A stretch of 63,324 nucleotides of DNA, filler included, from Chrysochromulina tobinii (lineage: Eukaryota): assembly GCA_001275005.1 (NCBI GenBank). It is 5 parts of 5 records of this genome, joined end to end, with 100 filler letters (N's around TTAATTAATTAA, not from the genome) between each part and the next. Parts side by side here need not be neighbours in the genome. Positions count along the whole stretch, not along the records: positions 46,214 to 59,176 come from JWZX01001045.1; 4 more parts are not named here. One strand, written 5' to 3'. Positions 4,313 through 62,405 of this stretch are shown in pieces (within the stretch, counting starts at the first letter, position 1; each line of letters begins with the position of its first letter). The position numbers and the translations under genes were made by a program. The notes under the pieces were generated by a model, which was not told the DNA's origin, made no database searches, and saw only the letters and a list, made by a program, of their open reading frames with translations.

Positions 4313-4729
<417 letters not shown>

Positions 4730-46113: not shown

Positions 46114-46213
46114 NNNNNNNNNNNNNNNNNNNNNNNNNNNNNNNNNNNNNNNNNNNNTTAATTAATTAANNNNNNNNNNNNNNNNNNNNNNNNNNNNNNN
46201 NNNNNNNNNNNNN
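46114..46213. other. Artificial contig-joining spacer
   Basis: N44-TTAATTAATTAA-N44. Confidence 0.99.
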
Positions 46214-49200
46214 GTGCCGAGCGGTGGTAGCGCCGTACCGAGCGGCGCCGACCCGAGGCCGAACTGGCTCGGTACGGCGCCCGCCTCCGCGCTCGGTACG
46301 GCGCTCGAGGACTCGCCGCCGCTCGGCACGGCGCTGCTGGCCGCGGCGCCGCTGCATCTGCCGCTGCTGCTTGTCGCATCGGCGATGGCGAGAGCGGCGG
46401 CGGGCAGCGGCGGCGCGGTCGGCGCTTGCGTCCGTCGCTGTGAAGCTACCGACGCGGACGCGGCCCTCCCTGCCGGGCGTCGTCGTGGCAGCCCCGGCAG
46501 CTTGGAGGGCCTCGATCCACTCGCGCATCTTCTCGCGACTCTCCGCGCAGAGCCGATGGCGGCGGGCGCCTACCGCCGAGGTGAGCGTGAAGACAAATTT
46601 GGAAGGCGCGCCCACATTGTCCGACGACGGCTGGATCGGCACGTCCGAGGGCCAGAGGACGAGTGCTGGGCGCTCGAGGTCGATGCCGTCGGGTACGAGG
46701 GGGCCCACGACGACGCTCGGCTCCTCTGTGAACGTCTCCGCGTAGCACAGCAGCGTACGCCCCTGCATCGTGCACCAGAGCCGGCGCCACTGCGACGACT
46801 GCTCGAAGTACCGGTACAGCCAGTCGCCCGCGACCGTGGGTGCGGGCGGCGGCTTGGGCTGGGCGCCCACGGCGGCGCTGAGGGCGGCGGCGGCCTCCGC
46901 GGCGAGAGAACTGGAGAGCACTCGGCGAACGCGCACGCCGCCGGCTCCACTCTCGTACATGCGTAAGAACATGTCGCCATCCTCTTGCCAGCCGCCCTTC
47001 ATGCTCGTGCGCGCGCGCTGGGCGGGCGAGCTCACGAGCTCCAGGTGCTCGCGTTGCTTCCTCCCGACCTGCTGGAGCAGCCCATCGGCGTTCCGAGTGT
47101 TGAGCATGTGGACGCGCTTGATGTGATGGCGCCCCTCCTCCTTGGGCACCGCCAGATTCGCCCGCTGCAGCGCGGCGATCCACTCGGCGAGGTCCTTGCC
47201 GTAGCTGCCCGCCGACTCGCCTTCGAGCGCGGAGCCTGCGAGGGTCGCACCGCCGATGCTACCGCCGCCGCCGCCGAAGCTACCGCCGCCGCCGCCGCCG
47301 CCCACGACGGCCACCGTATCGGCGCCCGATACGGCGCCCCCTAGGCTCGCCGCCGCACGCGCGATCGCCTCCACGCCGCTCGATGAGTAGATGACCCCCC
47401 CGATGCGCGGCGACGCCTCGGCGCCGCCGGCTGCCCCCCGGCCGGCAAGGCCGTTTGCGCCGGCGCCGGCGCCGCTGGCCACGCCCTCGGCCACGTCGGG
47501 CACAGCCAGCGAGCTCTCGCGAGATCGTAGCAGATCGCCTCCGAGATGCGGCGCCGTGGCGGGCGCCACGCCGCCGCGTGCCTGTGCATCGTACGCGCGC
47601 CGCTGCTCGGCGTTGTGGTACTCGCGGTCGACCCGGAAGAGGTACGTGCGCCGCGCGGTCGTGACTTCGAAATGGAAGTCCGTCTGGAGCACTCGTACCG
47701 AAGCACCTAAGATCGGAATGAGCCCCCGGGCAGGCTCGTCCTCATTCGGGATCTGGTCTTCATTTCGGCCCTCGGCCCGGAAGTAGTACATGCCCTCGGG
47801 CTGCAGCACGCACCAGCGGCGCTTCCACTGCGTTCGGAGCACGCCCCCCTCCTTGAGCAGCCAGCCATGGTGCAGCCGCCTCGACCTATCGAGCATGCGG
47901 AGCGTTGGCAGCTGGCGCGCCATCCCCACCGTCTTCGGCTGGAGCACGCGCAGCTGCCCGACGAGGGCGTCGTCGTCCTGCATGCATTTAGGGAGGCCAT
48001 CAGTATGCAATCAGAGGCAATCAGAGGGAGTCGTCGTCCTGCATGCAACGAGGGAGGCCATCAGTATGCAATCAGAGGCAATCAGAGGGAGTCGTCGTCA
48101 TGCATGCATTTAGGGAGGCCATCAGAGGCAATCAGAGGCAATCAGAGGGAGGGTTCGTCCCCCTTGTGCACCTGCAGCTCCTGCAGCGTCGGGCGCGAGC
48201 CTCCCGCGAGGAGCGTGCCGTTGAGGAAGACGATGGGGAGCATGCGCGAGGACGACTTGTCGCTGACGCCATTGGAGGCGAGCAGCAGCCGGAGGGTGGG
48301 CACCTCTGCCGGCTCGGTCGCCAAGTCGACCTGCATGCAATGAGGGAGGCCATCAGTATGCAATCAGAGGCAATCAGAGGGAGGGTTCGGTCGCCAAGTC
48401 GACCTCGAGGAACGAGGTGCCGCCGCCCGCCTTGAGCAGCGCCGTGCGCAGCAGCTGGCGGCCGCGCCGGCACGCGCACTTGGTCTCGGGCAGCACGCCG
48501 CACGATGAGCTGAAGACGACGAGCCCGCCGGCGAGCACCTGTGGGGAAAAGGGAGCGCGCGCCATGGTGAGCACTCGCATGCAAGACGACGAGCCCGCCG
48601 GCGAGCACCTCCTCCGCCGCCTCGGCCGCAATGTGGAAGTCGGTCGCGGGGTTGCCCGGCCACGCCACGTCGCGCAGCACGCGCCCATACAGCCCAAGAC
48701 GGCGCGATAGCTTGTCGCGTCGGCGCGAGTGCGGGTCGGGTGAGGTGGACCACGGGATCCATCCGTGAAAGATGCGACGAAACTCATCGGGCTCTGCGCC
48801 CGCGAGCACGTGGCTCACCTGTGGGGAAGGCGGGGGGGGCGCCGTGGTGAGCACTTGCATGCAGGGCAGGGGTGCGCCCGAGGCAACGCGAGCACGTGGC
48901 TCACCTGCACGCCGCCGGCGCGGGCGGCCGCCTGCGTGTACTGCTGCGCGAGCTGCATCGCGAGCGTCTCGTCCGCCTCGGGCGCCTCCTCGCCCACCCA
49001 CACGAAGAGGCACACGGCGCTGTCGAGAAGCAGCACCGCCTCGGAACAGAGCGACGAGTAGAGAGGCACGCCGCCGCGGCTGCGCTCCATACGCACGCGG
49101 CTCACGCCATGGCCGAGCGCGCGCACGCGCCACATGAAGGTGCGCTGCGCGCCCGAGGCAACGCGCCAACCGGACGCCTGCTTCACCTCGAGTGCGAGCG

Positions 49201-52200
49201 CTGCCTCGAGCTGCGCACGCTCCTTGATGAGCTCGGTGGTGGGCTTCGTCACACTCGGCGGCGGCTCCTCGGCGGGGGCATCCGCCTCGAGGCCCGATCC
49301 CTGCAGCGCGTTCCCCGCCGCCGCGTCGGGGTTGGCCCCAGGTGCGGAGGCGTACCTGTGCGGAAGGGAAGAGGGCGCCGTGGTGAGCACATGCATGCTG
49401 AGTTGCCTCGGTGAGCGGGTGCGGAGGCGTACCTCCCAAAAGGCTTCCAGAAGGCGGCGGGCTCGCTCCCCTCGGTGAGTGAGGTGAAGCGAAGGTGCGG
49501 CTGCGCATCGAGCAGCCGCTGCGCGATGGCCTGCGTCGCCTTGAGGAGAGAGCGAGCCGCGTGCCGCCCCGCCCACAAGAAGAGTGTCGCGTCCTCAGCA
49601 TGGAGGAGCAGGAAGCAATCTCGCGAGTCGAGATAGTAGACGCGGCACGGCACCTGGGACGCGCGCGCACACGCACACGCCGAGCAGTCGTGATCAATGG
49701 TGATCAGTGGCCATCAGTGGTCATCAGTGGCCATCAGTGGGCATCACGCACCTGGCGCGCGCACACGCCGAGCGCCGTGGACGCGTACCGCTTCACCTGG
49801 AGGAGGACCACCCCCTTGAGGGAAGGCAGTGACTCGACAGGAATCGGGACCGGTGCCGGTGGGGGGGGCGCCTCGGCCTCGCCCGCCGCCGCCACGGCCG
49901 CGCCGCTGCCGCTGGCCGCGCCGCCGGCGCTCAAAGAAGTCTGCATGGCGTCGACGATGGCGACGGTCGCTGGCGAAGGCTCTGGAGCGAGCGGCCGCGG
50001 GCGCGTGAGCGGATGGCTGCCCGAGAGGATAATGGTCCCCTCCATCACGGCGAGGAAGCGTTCGGGCTCCTCGCCCTGCGTGATGGTGCGCGGCACCGGG
50101 TTCTCGGGCATCGACTGCAGCAGCTGTGAGAGCTGGAAGCGCCAGGTGAGGAAGTTGAGCGGCGTCACGTCGGCGCCCTTCCAAAACCAGAGCGACGAGC
50201 GCTGCCGCCCGTCGACGGCGTAAGAGTAGAGCACCATGTACGCGTTCGCCGACCAGAAGATGCCGGCCTCATCGATCGTGAGGAGCTCAAAGACGTCACC
50301 GCCGACCAGCCACACGTTCACCGCCTCCGTCTCCGGGTCGACGGCGCCGCTCGCCGCCCCCTCCGCGCCCGCCGCGCCGTCCACGCCCTCCGCGGCGACC
50401 ACCTCGCCCCATTCGTCGCCCATGGAGGAGGCGAGGCGCGCACGCACTGCGGGTGAGGAGCCCTCGCCTCCCGTGTCGAGTCCACCGGGAGTCATCGCCG
50501 GCAAGGGCGCGCCCTCGGGGGAGCGTGAGTGGAAAGGTGACTGCCACGCCTCGGCAGGACCCATGCTGCCCGCGAGGGGCGTGGGCGGCACCATCGTGGG
50601 CGGCGCCATCCCCGCTGCGTCCGCTGCGCCCGATGCGTCCGCAGGGGCCGCTTCGGCCTCCTCCCGCAGTCGCCAACGCGTGAGGATGGCGTCCCGCTGC
50701 CGGCGCATGCGCGTCACCTCCTCTTCGATCGTGAGCACCCGGGGCGCACGCTGACCAGCTGGCAACAGCGGTGTGCCGCCTGCGCCCGCAAACGCCGCCA
50801 GGCGCATGCCGGAAGGGTTCGCCTCGCGCAGCCAGTGCCACGTGGCGAACTTCGACCGGAAGCTCGCCGACTCGCATCCCTCGAACTCGCGCAGGGCGGG
50901 CACCTTGTCGTGCTTGCGCTCGCCGCTAGTTCGGAGTTTCTCGGCGAGCGTGCGCGCGGCCCATCGCAGGTAGCCTCCCGCATGGAGCCCGCTCCACACG
51001 TACATCTCGCCGCCGCAGTCGAGCACCACGGTGCGCGTCGTGTGCAGCCTCTCGTCCGAGTGGAGGATGCGCACCTGAGCGATGAGGTCATCAGTGGCCA
51101 TCAGTGGCCATCAGTGGTCATCAGTGGTCATCAGTGGCCATCAGTGGCCATCAGTGGCCATCAGCAGCCTCTCGCCCGAGCACGCGCGCGCACCTCGACG
51201 CGCTCGCGCCGCAGTACGATCGAGGGCGTCGGCTCGAAACCGCCCACGCTCGAGGCGCCGCCAGGGCTGCACTCCATATGCAGAGGGGCCTCCGAGCTCG
51301 GCTCGACTTCCATATTTGGGACGCTGTCGGCCGGCGTTGCGCCCGATACGGCGCCTTCGTCAACGGGTGGCGGCGCGTAATCTTCGATGATGTTCAGGTT
51401 TGAAGAGCACTCCTCCGATGGCCCACCTTCGCTCGCACTCGCCGGGGCGGCGGCCGGTGCCGAGGCGCTGGCGCTCGGCACGGCGCCCGAGCCATGCGCG
51501 GGCGACTGGTGCTTGAAGAGGTTCGAGAGCCAGCCGACGGGTCCACCCGTGAGCGACTGGCGCGGCGGGCGCTGCGGCGATCTGGGCGGCGGTGCGCCGA
51601 TGATTCCCCCCTTCCCCCCTTCCCCCGTTCCCTGCAGCGCGCCCGCGAGCCCGGCGCCGGCGAGTCCCCCCCCCGAGGGCTCGGACATGCGCGCCGCGAA
51701 GGCCTGCTTGGAGGCCAACGATGAGCGCTGTGTTGAGCGTTGCTGCGGCGACGAGGGGAGCGGCGGCGACGAGGGCGGCAAGGGCGCCGTGTTGGGCGGG
51801 GGAGCCTCGCCCTCAAGGCTCAGAGTGTAGAGAACGAGAGGTAGCGAGGGCAGGGGCGGCGGCATCGGCGGGCCGGCCTCGTTCGCCTTGAGCACCTGCC
51901 AAAAGTAGCGGCTGATCTCAAGCGCCGAGCGCGCCGAGGGCGACGGGCCGTGGTCAGAGGCTGCCGCGTCGGCGCTCGATGCAGCGCCATCCTGCGGCGC
52001 CTCGGCCGCGCCGAGGACGTGCACGTGTGAATTCACACCTCGGCGGTCGAGGCACCGGATAGTGTTGGCGAGCAGGAGCGCACTGGCCTTGGCACGCAGC
52101 GGCGCCTCGTACCCATGCCACTGGTACACGGCCGACGGGAGCGCGTTGCGTGAAGCCTCAAGCCGTTGCCAGCCGGGCACCGAGCTGTCCATCGGCGGCT

Positions 52201-53637
52201 GCGGCGAGGGGGCGTCGAGTACGAAGACGGCGCTATCGCTGAGCGAATGCGAGGTCGGTCGCACTCGGGTCACCTCGCCGAGGCAACCTGCGCCCACCGC
52301 GACCCGGAAGAGACGCGCGACGGGCGGCGCATCCGTGCGCGCACGCCAGCTGGGAGCGGAGCCACCGGGAACGGCCTGAAGCTGTGGGAAGGCGGCGCGC
52401 ATCTCGTCCGATTCATCTCCCTCAATCTCGCGGTGGTGGCTCACCTGATGAAGGAGGGGGCAATCAAAGGTCATCAGAGGTCACCATAGGCCATCAGAGG
52501 AAGGAGGGGGCGATCAAGGGCCATCAGAGGCCATCAGAGGCCATAAGTGGCCATAACAGGCCATAAGTGGCCATCAGAGGCCATCAGAGGCCATCCATCA
52601 GAGGCGATCTCGCGCTGAAGGCTCACCGCTCGGTCGTCGCACATGAGCAGCCCCGAGAGCTGGACGACGAGCGCGGCAGCGGCGCCCGACTTGTCCGCTG
52701 TACAGCTCGCCCCCAGCCAGTAGTAGGCGCGCCACGCCTTACTGGGCGCCTCGCCGCCGCCGCAGTCGGCCTGCGCGCTCGCGCCGGCCGGCTCATGCGC
52801 CGGCGCGGCGGCGGCAGCGGCGGCGCCGTCGGCGAGCTTGGGCGGCGGCGGCACGAGCAGGATGTACGCGTCGGTCGTGTGCAGCTTGAGCGGCGCCGTC
52901 GGGTCCTCGCACGGGACGCGGCGGACGGAGAAGCCGACGACACGCCACACGTGCGCCCGATCAGGAGCAAGGCTTGCATCCTCCTCGAACGGAGTCGTCT
53001 CGGCGACGCCCGTGCCGAGCTCGAGCAGCCGCTCGACATGCTCCTCGTACTCGCGCCAGCACAGCGCATCATGCAGCGCCGCGTCGTCCACCTCGGCCAG
53101 CGCCGAGGCGCCGTCCGCCGCTGAGAGTGCCGATGCGCCTGCGAGCACCGCCGAGAGCGAGCCCGGGCCGAGGGAGGCGAGCGGCGACTCGCCGTCGTCG
53201 ACCTTTTGCGGCGGCGGCGGCAGCTCGTCGTTGGTGCCAAGCGCATGCAGCAGCACGATGAAGCTGTCGAAGCCGCCGTACGCCTGGATCCAGAAGGCGA
53301 GCAGCCGCCGCAGGTAGCGGCGCAGCTCCTCGGCGAGTTTGTGCACATACTCGGGGTGGTGAGTATTGAGCCAGCGCGGGCGCGAGCGCGGCAGCTCCGG
53401 CAGCCGCAGCGTCGGGTGCGTCTCGCGCAGCTTTTGGTGCAGGTGCTGAAAGCGCGAGTAGCGCAGCTCAAACCACGTATCGGGGCTCGGGTACTTGCCG
53501 AGGTGGCTCTCGAGCCGGACGAGGTATACGGTGTGTGCCCGCAGCTCGCCCGGCGCGATGCGCTCCTCGGTGCGCGGCAGCTCCACGTGGCAGAAGGCCG
53601 CGCGTGCCATGCGCGTGCGACCTCGCGAGGCGATCAT
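46214..53637 (-). CDS. Giant PX + gelsolin/villin repeats + glutaredoxin-like + 2x PH protein, >2100 aa, 3'-truncated; exons 53637-52627, 52444-51194, 51074-49752, 49653-49433, 49355-48905, 48818-48609, 48538-48404, 48330-48172, 47977-46214
   Basis: PX: HTVYLV...LRYSRFQHLHQKL...LPELP; gelsolin: YYWLGASCTADKSGAAA, REIEGDES, VFVLD, MYVWSG, EGSEPAAFW; Grx-like: FLEVDL...LPIVFLNG; PH: GWLLKEG...WKRRW and QWRRLW...MREWIEAL; all eight GT-AG junctions preserve frame. Confidence 0.88.
47978..48171 (-). other. Intron H (194 nt): three tandem ~61-nt units of the TGATTGCCTC cassette
   Basis: GTGCAC...TGCATGCAG; internal units are separated by GACGACGAC, a copy of the downstream exon start. Confidence 0.9.
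48331..48403 (-). other. Intron G (73 nt): 17-nt exon duplication + TGATTGCCTC cassette
   Basis: GTCGACTTGGCGACCGA begins both the intron and the next exon; ends TGCATGCAG. Confidence 0.9.
48539..48608 (-). other. Intron F (70 nt): 26-nt exon duplication + GCATGC-GTGCTCACCA cassette
   Basis: GTGCTCGCCGGCGGGCTCGTCGTCTT begins both the intron and the next exon; ends TTTTCCCCACAG. Confidence 0.92.
48819..48904 (-). other. Intron E (86 nt): 18-nt exon duplication + GCATGCAAGTGCTCACCACGGCG cassette
   Basis: GTGAGCCACGTGCTCGCG begins both the intron and the next exon; ends CCTTCCCCACAG. Confidence 0.92.
49356..49432 (-). other. Intron D (77 nt): 15-nt exon duplication + GCATGCATGTGCTCACCACGGCG cassette
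   Basis: GTACGCCTCCGCACC begins both the intron and the next exon; ends CCTTCCGCACAG. Confidence 0.92.
49654..49751 (-). other. Intron C (98 nt): TGATGGCCAC tandem repeats + copy of the upstream exon end
   Basis: GTGCGT donor; 3' end GCTCGGCGTGTGCGTGTGCGCGCGCGTCCCAG mirrors the exon end GCTCGGCGTGTGCGCGCGCCAG. Confidence 0.9.
51075..51193 (-). other. Intron B (119 nt): degenerate ~30-nt exon duplication + TGATG(G/A)CCAC tandem repeats
   Basis: Intron start GTGCGC...CTCGGGCGAGAGGCTGC versus exon start GTGCGC...CTCGGACGAGAGGCTGC. Confidence 0.9.
52445..52626 (-). other. Intron A (182 nt): degenerate ~22-nt exon duplication + TGATGGCCTC tandem repeats
   Basis: Intron start GTGAGCCTTCAGCGCGAGATCG versus exon start GTGAGCCACCACCGCGAGATTG; ends CCTTCATCAG. 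Confidence 0.9.
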
Positions 53638-55243: not shown

Positions 55244-58200
55244 TCAGAGCTCCAAGTGGGAGGGGGCGCCTCGCCAAGCGTTTCGGAGGGCGCGCTTGGC
55301 TTGCTCATCTAGTTTATTGTGGCAGAGGCTGCGCACACAGAGAGAGGGAAGGGGCATCATCAGGTGGCAAGGAGCAATGCGGAGCGTCAGATGGCAGGAT
55401 ATGCAAGGAAGGAGCAAAGAGCAGTGGTGAGCATCCGATGGCAGGATGCAAGGAAGGAGTCGTCCTTTTGAACCACATGCAGCATGCGGGAACGCAGAGC
55501 AGAGGCGCAGGGCTGCATCACACAAGAGCGGCAGCGGCAGAGCACTGCTTTGGACAAGAGCGACGGAGCACGCGACGTGCACAAGTGTTGGCACGTCGCC
55601 AGGGATTTTGGTCCAGGGTTTTTGGCCCCTCAAGTCCCTCAAGTTTGAGGCGAAACGTACCTCATTTTGGTCAGCCCGCCGTTGACGCCAAGCATGTCTG
55701 CCACATGCTTGGCGCCTGCTGCCCCTCGTCCAATGTTGCCGTAACCAGACAGATCGAGCTCCTTGAGCGTCTTGTTCTGTTTGAGAGCCTCGCAGATGGC
55801 CTTGGTGCCCTCCTCCTTCAAATCGTTCGACGCCAGGGACAGCTTCGTCAGCGCGCCTGTGACATCGGCCTGTAACAGGTCCGACGCCAGCAGGATCGCA
55901 TCGGGCGGCTTGAGGTTCTGGTTGGAGAAGTCAGCGGTGGTCTGGTCACGCTGGATGCCGCAGAGCGAGATGCCCTTCTGCTTGGCGACCTCAGCGAGCA
56001 TCTTGGCGGACTCTGCATCAAGCTGATTGCCCAGGAGGTTGGTCACCGTCAGCGCGCCTGTGACAACAGCCTGTGACAGGTCCGACGCCAGCAGGATCGC
56101 ATCGGGCGGCTTGAGGCCCTGGTTGCGGAAGTCAGCGGTGGTCTGGTCGCGCCGGATGCCGCAGAGCGAGATCCCCTTCTGCTTGGCGACCTCAGCGAGC
56201 ATCTTGGCGGACTTCTCATCAAGCTTATTGCCCAGGAGGTTGGTCACCGTCAGCGCGCCTGTGACGGCCACCATGGCCGCCACAGACTTTGCTCCCACTG
56301 GACCAATGCCGTTGTCCTCGAAGTTGAGCGACGCGAGCTTGGTCTCCTTGTTGCTCTTGATGGCCTCGCAGACTGCGTTTACGCCCTCATCCTTGAGGCT
56401 GTTGAACGACAAATTCAGGGCCGTCAGCCCGCCTGTGACGGCCACCATGGCGGCCACAGACTTTGCTCCCACTGGACCGATGCTGTTGGCGCGCATGTTG
56501 AGCGATGAGAGCTTGGTCTCCTTGTTGCTCTGGATGGCCTCGCAGACTGCGCTTACGCCCTCATCCATGAGGTCGTTGGACGACAAATCCAGGGCCGTCA
56601 GCCCGCCTGTGACGCTCGTGCGGAGCGCCTCGGCGATCAGCTTGACACCAGCAGAGCCGATGTTCTCGCAGGACGCGTCCATAGACATGATCTTGCTGTC
56701 CTTGTTGCCGCAGATGGCGGCAAAGATGGCGCCCCAGCCCCAGCCCCCGAGCTTGTTGCCCCTGAGATTGATGGACGTCAATGCGCCATTAGCCGCGTGG
56801 CCGCTTTGCAGCAACCCGCAGAGCCGCTCAAGGGCCACTGTGTTGGCGCCATTTGCGGACAGCCGCGTACTCGCGAACGAGAGCGACGTGACGCTCGGAC
56901 AGAGCGCCCAGCACGCAACCGCGAGGGTTTCGGGGCCCGCCTGGACGCCCTCCAGGTTGATGCTCAAGGGCACCTTCTTAGCAGCGGCATTCCACGCGAG
57001 GCAGCAGAGCCCGTCGGCCTGGACACGCGACAGCGTCCCTTGCACGCGCACCTCTGTGGCGGCGGGGGTGATCGCTGGGATCGAAGGCTCGGCTTGCTGG
57101 GATCGAAGACTGGCGATGGCGTTGGCAGTGCCGCCGCCGAACTCGGCGCTCGTCTTAGCGACGACGGCGCCGAAAGGATTGCTCGTGCCCACGCTAGCGC
57201 CCAGCCCGCCTGCCGCCGCCGCCACCGCCGAGGCTGCTGGCGCGCCTATGCTGAAGGTGGTCACCGCACCTGCCGAGGCCGGGGCGCCACAGTCGGGTGT
57301 GGCCGTTGCCCCTGCGCTGCCCCCGAAGCCGCCCACGGCAGGCACGGCGGCCGCACCGAAGCCGCCAAACCCGCCCGTGGTCGCACCGCCCACACCACCA
57401 AACGCAGATGGGGCGGGAGCAGACGCACTGCCGCCAACAATCGCAGCGGGCACTTCATTGAGGTTCAAGGTGGGTGCGGGCGCGGCACCAAAGGCGGGTG
57501 CGTGCGTGCTTGCGGGGCCAAAGGCGGGCGCGCCGAACGCTGGCGTCTGGACAGCAGGCGCGACAACAAGGGGCGTGGCACAGAAGATGGTTGCGGGCGC
57601 AGGAGCGGCGCCAAAGGCTGGGACGGGCGCCTGGGCGCCTCCGAAAAATGCGTCGGCGGGCGCGGCGCTGAGGCCACCGACGCCACTCGCTGGCGAACGA
57701 GCGGGTAAGGGGGCGGCGGCTGGTGCTGTCGTGGAAGTGCTGGCGCCAATCGCAGGGGCGACGCCGAAGGCGAGCGCTTCCGGAGCAGCGGCGCCAAAGG
57801 CAGGTGCGGTTGCCGGCCCCGGCACTCCAAAGCTGAAGCTGCCGGCGGCAGCCGGCGCCGCCTGTGCATCGCGGAATGGCGAGGCAGCGGGAGGGCCCGC
57901 GTCTGCGCCAAAGGAGAAGCTGCCCACGGCGGGTGGTGGTGCGGCGGCGGCAAAGGCGGCGGCGTCGGGCAGAGTGGCAGCGGGCGCAGCAGGGGCCGTG
58001 CTCACCACACCGAAGGCGAACAGGTTGCCACACGAGGCGGTCGAAGCGGGCGCGCTCGCATCGGAGCCGACGCTCGGAGCTGGAGGCTCGGAAGCACTGT
58101 CCGCCGGTGGGTCGTTCTCGTCTATGTCCACGAGGTCGACCTCTCCAGGTTCAACTCCACTCTTCGTGGCAGAAGATGGCTCATCCTCGGGAATCCCTGT

Positions 58201-60966: not shown

Positions 60967-62405
60967 CTAATGGTCCTTGTCCTTCTCAACCTTGAGCTTC
61001 TTGACGAACCCCTTCTTGCCGCCACGCTTCTCCAACTTCGCATACGCCATGCGAATCCGCAGGAGGAAAACGAGCGCCACGGCCAGCAGCAGCATCCCAA
61101 CATACCCCTTGGAGAGCGGAGTGCTATGTTTGAGGGCCTTCTGGAGCTGCTGGCCCTTGGCACTCGCCCGCCACTTGGCAGCCCTGTCGCTGCCGAGGTC
61201 CGCGGCGAGATTGAGCATCCGCTCGGCACGTACAGGGTCGGGGCGCAGGGCGGGCGAGATCCCATCCAGGTAGAGGTTCGCGAGCTGCATGGCCGCATTC
61301 GAATGGTTCTGCTCGAGTGCCGCCCGCTCGAGCATGCTGATGGCGGTCGCAATCTCCTCCTTGGCATGCGCTGTGGACGCGTCTTGGGCTCTCTCCGGCT
61401 TGAGGTACCTGCCATCCCGAGGGCACCGATTCATCAATGGTCAACAAGGATCATCAAGGATCATCAATGGCCATCAAGGGTCATCAAAGGTCATCAAAGG
61501 TCATCAAAGGTCATCAAAGGTCATCAAGGGTACCGAGTCGTGATGGTGACCGCCCACGCGTAGAGACCTTCAGCGACTCCCTTGGAAGCACTCTGGATGA
61601 GCATCTCTTCGGACGCGCGGCTGTCCACCCCATTCACGCATTGCGCGCGGTCCTCGTGGTACCAAACGATCAGTGAGAGACGCTCGCACTCCTCTGCACG
61701 TGCTCCACTCAATCGACGGTCGGCACATGCCAGGTAGACGCCGTGCAGCAGCTCGTGCCCGTGCGCAAAGGCGTCGCCCGCGGCAAGCGCAGGGAAGCTG
61801 CGGTTGGCCTCGGTGCCCTCCATGATGTACAGGCCGCCCGCCGCGCCGACTGGCCTCGCCGGCTGTAGCTCGAGCACCAGGGTCACTTTCGACTCGGCGT
61901 CGCGGTGTGCGAAGATTTGCTTGCGCTCCTTTGGACGGTAGCGGCGCACGAGGCTGGTGCACGGGACGCACGTGGCGCACGCAAACTTTTGGCGCACAAA
62001 GGGCGTCACGCAGCTCGCCAGCAACTCGCTCAGCTTCATCCAGATATGATTCTTCCACGGCGCGTCCTCGATGACAGCACCATGGGTGTAGATATAAGAA
62101 GCGAACTCGGGTTGCATGTCGGTAGAGCCCGGGTGCGTTGAAAAGGTCGCGTGCTCGCGGAGATAGGTCACTATCTCTGCGGTGTCCTCGGCGCTGAACA
62201 GCGAGAGTAGCCAATACACCGCCGATGGTATGCCCGGCTCGAGCTCGTTGGGAAGCGTCGCGTGCTGCCACTGCGTGCGCTCGGGACAGCCGGCCATATC
62301 GATGGCCGCCTTGGCGCGTCGTTCGACCTCTAATGCGTCAAAATCGGCGGTCACATCGGCTCGCGCCATGGACATCCAGAGTGAGAGCAACACGACGCGT
62401 CGCAT
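60967..62405 (-). CDS. ER-membrane 2OG-Fe(II) oxygenase + Sel1-like repeats; join(62405..61534,61408..60967)
   Basis: Signal peptide; VRRY...HRD, GGLY, LLHGV...RLSLI; AAMQLANLYLDG...LAADLG Sel1-like; C-terminal TM helix and KxKxx (KDKDH) tail. Confidence 0.85.
61409..61533 (-). other. Intron (125 nt) made of TGATGACCTT-type 10-nt tandem repeats
   Basis: GTACCC...TGGCAG; GGTACC at both junctions; removal joins the two ORFs in frame. Confidence 0.9.

Follow-up and report, generated by a model that had tools for sequence, protein, structure and literature searches.

Introduction

Where most new introns come from is still debated, and for about 72% of introner families no mechanism has been assigned (PMC12130899). 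Among the closest described systems are the introners of Symbiodinium and of Polarella (classes 4/5 and 6/8/10), which take their 5' splice site from the target-site duplication (TSD), a duplication fixed at 4 or 8 nt and accompanied by inverted repeats in Symbiodinium (10.1101/2020.10.14.339549). Here we consider eight introns (A to H) of a villin/gelsolin-like gene in the haptophyte alga Chrysochromulina tobinii (record JWZX01001045.1 of assembly GCA_001275005.1), part of a 63,324-nt stretch of DNA that was analysed as a whole and is called the window below. They are like the Symbiodinium and Polarella introners in that the 3' site comes with the insert and the donor with the duplicate, and the mRNA is unchanged; unlike them, they have duplications that vary from 10 to ~50 nt, a main family without terminal inverted repeats (TIRs) and no identical copies. 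Introns of this build, a duplicate of host exon followed by a tail shared with other introns, are real, spliced (as shown for six of the eight) and widespread, and their gain is probably ongoing.

Within the same algal group, an introner example from a Chrysochromulina sp. has a 4-bp TSD and carries its own 5' site (10.1101/2022.06.06.494994), which is the opposite polarity to the introns here. For C. tobinii itself, one screen gives 0 introner families; the same source describes a family of Emiliania huxleyi (fam24, five copies) whose members co-opt the 5' site, carry the 3' site and have '10bp terminal direct repeats' (PMC12130899). That family is small, its automated TSD call is 2 nt, and it was compared here by description alone.

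Routes that involve no introner also share features with these introns. Intron gains at staggered double-strand breaks in Daphnia pulex show direct repeats of 4-17 nt, and have in common with our loci the variable length of those repeats, polymorphism in populations, secondary insertions at the same site and parallel gains (PMC4202315). Tandem genomic duplication of an AGGT-bearing exon segment, one of seven classic routes of intron gain, likewise lets duplicated coding sequence give a splice site and makes the gain precise (PMC3443670). Unlike that route, only the donor side is host-derived here, an AG precedes the site in just 26/104 primary cases, and there is a foreign tail of ~48 nt. Intron transposition by reverse splicing is described in Oikopleura and Mycosphaerella (PMC3443670), and the sister stwintrons of fungi are new introns homologous to existing ones (PMC8469720). 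Both share with the present system new introns that resemble existing introns and the lack of transposon hallmarks; they copy whole introns without a flanking duplication, whereas here a 3' half is joined to a long duplication. The Daphnia pulex inserts, for their part, have reportedly not been presented as intron-derived families. In the literature covered (subscription journals and bioRxiv supplements lay outside it), we found no account of introns in which a long duplication of variable length is joined to a copied half of another intron.

Eight introns in a villin/gelsolin-like gene

The host gene encodes PX, gelsolin-repeat and PH domains. As the original prediction had it, eight GT-AG segments of 70-194 nt restore the frame: their excision leaves one long PX/gelsolin/PH reading frame, open as far as an assembly gap (Table 1). 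No intron length is divisible by 3 (0/8), and seven of the eight introns lie in phase 0 and D in phase 2. The exact copies of the downstream exon start that had been noticed in D, E, F and G were confirmed, as were the degenerate copies in A and B and the copy of the upstream exon at the 3' end of C (a mirror arrangement). The original prediction named no copy in H, but H also carries exon copies: after a short GT stub it contains three tandem ~61-nt units, each with 5-9 nt of the exon start before it. Within the host coding sequence, 0/38,226 GT-GT position pairs share at least 15 nt.

The tails fall into three families, namely a decamer repeat (A-C), a family with a GTGCTCACC core (family 1, D-F) and a family with a TGCATGCAG end (family 2, G-H). 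The shared cassette first proposed is thus to be replaced by three families; B and C have 29 nt in common. Intron E also holds a 17-nt snippet of an exon 260 nt upstream, which overlaps its duplicate by 4 nt and is, judged by this match, likely a local templated insertion. Downstream exons begin with GT in 7/8 cases, as predicted, and upstream exons end in AG in 7/8, so that the host gene alone cannot show that the insert supplies the AG.

Table 1. Positions in the window of the host gene, its introns and one exon stretch that recurs in intron E.
Feature	Position	Length	Strand	Build	Splicing	Exon copy or remark
Host gene	46214..53637		minus			ATG at 53637; excised frame open to assembly gap at 46213
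Intron A	52445-52626	182 nt	minus	decamer-repeat tail	RNA joint in 2/4 runs	first 20 nt identical to exon 52425-52444 at 17/20
Intron B	51075-51193	119 nt	minus	decamer-repeat tail	RNA joint in 2/4 runs	decayed ~30-nt copy of downstream exon start: 6-nt exact start and 16/17 block ending at nt 30
Intron C	49654-49751	98 nt	minus	mirror type	RNA joint in 3/4 runs	3' end a decayed copy of upstream exon end
Intron D	49356-49432	77 nt	minus	family-1 tail	RNA joint in 4/4 runs	49418-49432, exact 15-nt copy of exon 49341-49355
Intron E	48819-48904	86 nt	minus	family-1 tail	judged from homologues	48887-48904, exact 18-nt copy of exon 48801-48818
Exon stretch	49149..49165	17 nt	minus			recurs in intron E at 48874-48890
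Intron F	48539-48608	70 nt	minus	family-1 tail	judged from protein homology	48583-48608, exact 26-nt copy of exon 48513-48538
Intron G	48331-48403	73 nt	minus	family-2 tail	RNA joint in 3/4 runs	48387-48403, exact 17-nt copy of exon 48314-48330
Intron H	47978-48171	194 nt	minus	GT stub and tandem family-2 units	RNA joint in 3/4 runs	

RNA contigs from four runs, which may come from one campaign, have joints that precisely remove six of the eight introns (A, B, C, D, G and H). The predicted junctions were therefore borne out for these six; E and F are absent among the 15 RNA joints listed out of 20, and one depth-3 RNA contig continues unspliced into the 3' part of E. The assembly is a short-read metagenome assembly with gaps, and in principle the duplicates could be an artefact of it or a chance resemblance. 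Against this, 13 DNA runs contain 0.89-0.93 of the words of the stretch, and as 14.5% of the stretch is intron, this fits introns present in the DNA; the RNA joints at D and G have ambiguous overlaps of 17 and 19 nt; the same introns recur in separate assemblies; and the duplicates are mostly imperfect. We regard an artefact or chance resemblance as extremely improbable. The freshwater runs X20 and X21 contain next to none of the stretch's words. In run X14, an RNA contig has six differences from the window within 53347-53408 and perhaps represents a second allele or a paralogue.

Duplicates and tails across metagenome loci

A scan with the family-1 core returned 138 loci from 3/64 parts of the metagenome collection, and the core is estimated to occur in ~3000 of the stored stretches. 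From these loci, 157 tails were kept (core with at most one mismatch, pyrimidine-rich run to an AG, and flanks of 150 nt on the upstream and 60 nt on the downstream side); exact duplicates were removed, and the set still includes a few copies that are orthologous or in tandem. At 116/157 tails the downstream exon has an anchored copy upstream, against 2/299 shuffled-pair controls. These duplicates are indeed variable, as had been claimed, over a longer range than the 15-30 nt then given: they measure 10-58 nt (median 30), and since five of the longest values are inflated by tandem units the true maximum is about 50 nt. Their mean identity is 94%, and 29/116 are perfect, which fits the earlier suggestion of events of different ages. 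The introns are mostly 63-99 nt long, with about 40% of that length taken by the duplicate and a median non-host insert of 48 nt.

Twelve of the 116 units directly follow an intron-like AG. Among the other 104, taken as primary units, 96 begin with GT or GC, 73 follow G and only 26 follow AG, so the insert brings the acceptor. This upholds the proposed division of labour, in which the host duplicate gives the donor and the insert the branch-like motif, the pyrimidine tract and the AG. Units have a ragged 5' boundary and a 3' end fixed at the AG. The same build is found with the decamer and TGCATGCAG families (a list that includes some antisense false matches), the mirror build is rare (1-3/157), and phase estimates at the loci are 26/16/25 for phases 0/1/2, although noisy.

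Near a decamer-like intron of loci L029 and L080 lies another intron of the mirror type, with a copy of the upstream exon at its 3' end and a repeat number that differs greatly between the two loci. Tandem arrays of exon copy and tail occur at L034 (1450-1640), L083, L096, L028, L003, L010 and L072, and their back-to-back AG|GT points could be spliced recursively.

Tail families and the case for a transposon

These introns could be true introners, that is, non-autonomous transposons with a master element that hops locally and whose tails diversified by later decay. Three discrete families, the abundance of the family-1 core and its conservation all speak for such an element (core columns are 87-100% conserved, one variable position aside, a figure inflated by the choice of loci by exact match), and a 5' site co-opted from the TSD is a known introner pattern (10.1101/2022.06.06.494994, 10.1101/2020.10.14.339549). 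The original prediction saw no TIRs. For families 1 and 2 this holds strictly, and in family 1 an inverted repeat never exceeds 5 nt (116/116 inserts examined); the decamer family does have an inverted match of 5-7 nt at its ends, which would suit a transposon and may equally reflect its repeat unit. Against a transposon stand these short ends in family 1, the variable rather than fixed length of the duplication, the ragged 5' boundary and the diversity of the tails, of which 145 are distinct among 157 and 25 among the 26 perfect-duplicate introns, the sole repeat being the pair L017/L127. There is no master copy of the tails. The system acts like an introner and yet fails as one on TIRs, on a fixed TSD and on a master copy, and we consider a transposon of this kind improbable.

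At their 3' end the tails have a variable pyrimidine tract finishing in CAG, and no poly(A); no Rfam model matched at gathering level. Introns D-H and many loci contain the palindrome TGCATGCA or its core, which is present in families 1 and 2 and in part of the decamer tails; in family-1 copies the 5' junctions cluster a little upstream of this palindrome. It may serve as a signal for splicing or be a hotspot of switching.

A filled and an empty site

An intron-free allele with a single copy of the segment had been named as a check on gain by duplication, and an empty site with a single copy is present at another locus. Between L127 and L017/L058, whose flanks are 96-97% identical, an 81-nt insertion occurs only in L127 and consists of a perfect 33/33-nt duplicate and a tail; at the empty site the segment is present once, within an open frame, and excising the insertion gives back the L017 sequence. 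Only the final 50 nt of the L127 intron are shared with its neighbour: they are identical to the end of the intron that follows in L017, 476 nt further downstream. The next-best match to this tail across all loci and the window is 14 nt. In this one pair with a known donor, the junctions show a 2-nt overlap at the 5' side and a shared G-GTG at the 3' side. A perfect duplicate together with a neighbour's exact tail fits gain better than loss.

Clean empty and filled sites were found in 1/7 divergent pairs aligned. L034 and L074 differ by one whole tandem unit (2 vs 1 copies), and the paralogue pair of L071 and the window shows no intron difference. In L068 (1260-1350) and L120, an orthologous intron with flanks 99.2% identical has three differences in its ~45-nt tail and an unchanged duplicate, a pattern which may reflect fast tail turnover or gene conversion.

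Kinship of tails and a proposed mechanism

The tail most similar to a given tail lay on the same contig in 14.5/89 cases against 1.2 expected (~12x; 0/500 permutations; 8/30 contigs), with ties counted in part and L127 left out. Of the tests of kinship, those of best match and of high similarity were significant, in part with L127 merged by hand with L017. In the host gene, G and H share 42 nt, while their best matches elsewhere are 27-30 nt, and a 15-mer unit occurs at three sites (five matches) in L053 and at no other locus. Near the seeds, 146 extra tail sites occur in 159 kb from 65 loci (0.92 per kb), and 125/146 are on the same strand as the seed; outside the host gene, the window has 2 weak tail matches in 55.6 kb, although one window is a thin background. 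Donors are thus likely often neighbouring introns, a reading from tail similarity in which the kinship is undirected and concerns a minority of tails.

We propose that new introns are written by template switching to the 3' half of an existing intron, guided by microhomology, and give this reading an even chance. A repairing or replicating polymerase would leave its target and switch to an existing intron, often one of the same gene, copy the last ~45-50 bases of that donor up to the AG, and rejoin the target 10-50 bases behind the point of departure, so duplicating it. The duplicated host bases would supply the GT donor, and the template might be either DNA or the gene's own pre-mRNA. Selection would retain an event only if it lay at a G|GT site and the total length came to about 63-99 nt, and each new intron would in turn be a donor. 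The downstream exon of a new intron starts with GT, and the return junction would therefore favour further GT sites.

We infer both the template switching and its guidance by microhomology from the junctions and tails. L020 and L138 alternate between exon, tail, exon and tail at short shared words, and at least four exon-start bases are shared in 8/15 very similar tail pairs vs 18-19% of dissimilar pairs. Statistical support for microhomology is modest.

The main rival is target-primed reverse transcription (TPRT), in which the enzyme of a retroelement without long terminal repeats (non-LTR) would copy intron RNA, either excised or in the nascent pre-mRNA, starting at the 3' splice site, truncating after ~50 nt and leaving a long, variable target-site duplication. 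TPRT leaves one fixed end, one ragged end and duplications of variable length. That is the geometry observed, with the fixed end at the AG beside the start of the duplicate, and it is fitted equally by template switching; a fixed 3' end is also demanded by splicing and so is not diagnostic. The local origin of donors would be explained if the template were nascent RNA from the same gene, and TPRT would account for the strong polarity implied by the rarity of the mirror type and for neighbours on the same strand, for which selection for splicing accounts equally well. Non-LTR introners exist (PMC12130899). No element with a reverse transcriptase or endonuclease and the tail was found in the viral and prokaryote scans, each of which gave one uninformative match. 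Moreover, the copies reach at least 8 nt beyond the branch-like motif, where a reverse transcriptase should stall on a lariat, and the alternation of exon and tail suits a switching polymerase. We therefore hold TPRT to be rather unlikely, if less so than a transposon.

The positions themselves might instead be old, the introns being renewed by tandem slippage of tail and exon start, with homogenisation by gene conversion and occasional precise loss, and no new positions would arise. Units directly after an intron-like AG, the tandem units of H and the copy-number difference between L034 and L074 are what such slippage would leave, whereas most units (104/116) do not directly follow an intron end, and L127 points to gain. 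Homologues of the host protein (P0001-P0005, 38-62% identity) bear on the same question. P0003, P0004 and P0012 align without insertion over all eight junctions, and three homologues seem to read through introns, either at F or elsewhere, and are therefore probably open reading frames (ORFs) read on unspliced DNA. On that reading, the homologues, continuous at 7/8 sites, suggest that relatives at 38-62% identity lack introns at positions A-E, G and H. The earlier expectation that positions would not be shared with homologues thus stands for those seven and falters at F, which may be an older or parallel site with renewed sequence. We judge renewal of old positions, taken as the general explanation, marginally less probable still than a transposon.

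Several observations weigh against template switching from neighbouring introns. P0002 (50% protein identity) leaves the alignment exactly at F and appears, from that break, to have an intron there, as renewal would predict. The empty and filled sites form a single pair with no outgroup, and the pair may be paralogous; L127 moreover shows one pattern match only, so that the donor intron is possibly altered or absent on that contig. About five in six of the tails that have a neighbour match best on another contig, the median similarity of tails in cis is not clearly above that in trans (p=0.08), and D, E and F are not mutual closest relatives (18 nt shared vs 23-36 elsewhere). Local kinship could also arise from gene conversion after insertion. 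With regard to microhomology, the junction overlap in the decamer family is 2.25 vs 0.33 nt for n=4 only, tail-start words are hardly enriched in exons, and local templating of non-tail spacers was not general (2/32 stood out). Lastly, many copies have kept a 24-nt core, as would be expected of a signal in cis that an enzyme or the splicing machinery recognises.

A wider claim, that intron writing here is self-propagating and transposon-free, with the 3' half of any intron able to seed a new intron nearby, we put forward tentatively, at somewhat under an even chance. If it is true, introns spread through genes as a local contagion that is still active in natural populations, and such introns escape screens based on similarity of whole introns. 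Copying of tails, if this reading is right, would let new introns arise with no master transposon. Were such an element unnecessary, host repair and selection for splicing could by themselves sustain the gain of introns. This would account for genes dense in introns within a stretch that is otherwise poor in them. Once the duplicate has decayed such introns would look ordinary, and the route could therefore be missed elsewhere. Donor and target are both kept on record, so that source, junctions, age and direction are readable for many events, and these readings are checkable against population alleles and a culture with RNA data.

Other observations in the loci and the window

A phage-like contig from the viral scan (L139) has an algal family-1 tail in its last 60 nt (4495-4554) and is probably an assembly chimera; L140 was rejected as a chance match. 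Two further places in the window resemble introns, both on the minus strand. At 61330-61620, a decamer-repeat run ending in CAG|GT is likely another decamer-family intron, lying beyond the host gene. At 55330-55480, upstream of an ORF, a pyrimidine-rich segment that is internally repetitive and has a decayed GCTCACC core is a possible old intron.

In contrast to the eight-intron gene, positions 1-45000 of the window hold mostly long uninterrupted ORFs, and the window as a whole has many of 500-980 aa. From their sequences, those in 1-45000 presumably include a P5-type ATPase-like protein, an ALG10-like protein and kinases. Another ORF of the window has its best named match in Prymnesium parvum (61%), which points to a prymnesiophyte haptophyte as the probable host. 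A ubiquitin search identified a polyubiquitin ORF in 1-45000 and was uninformative for taxonomy.

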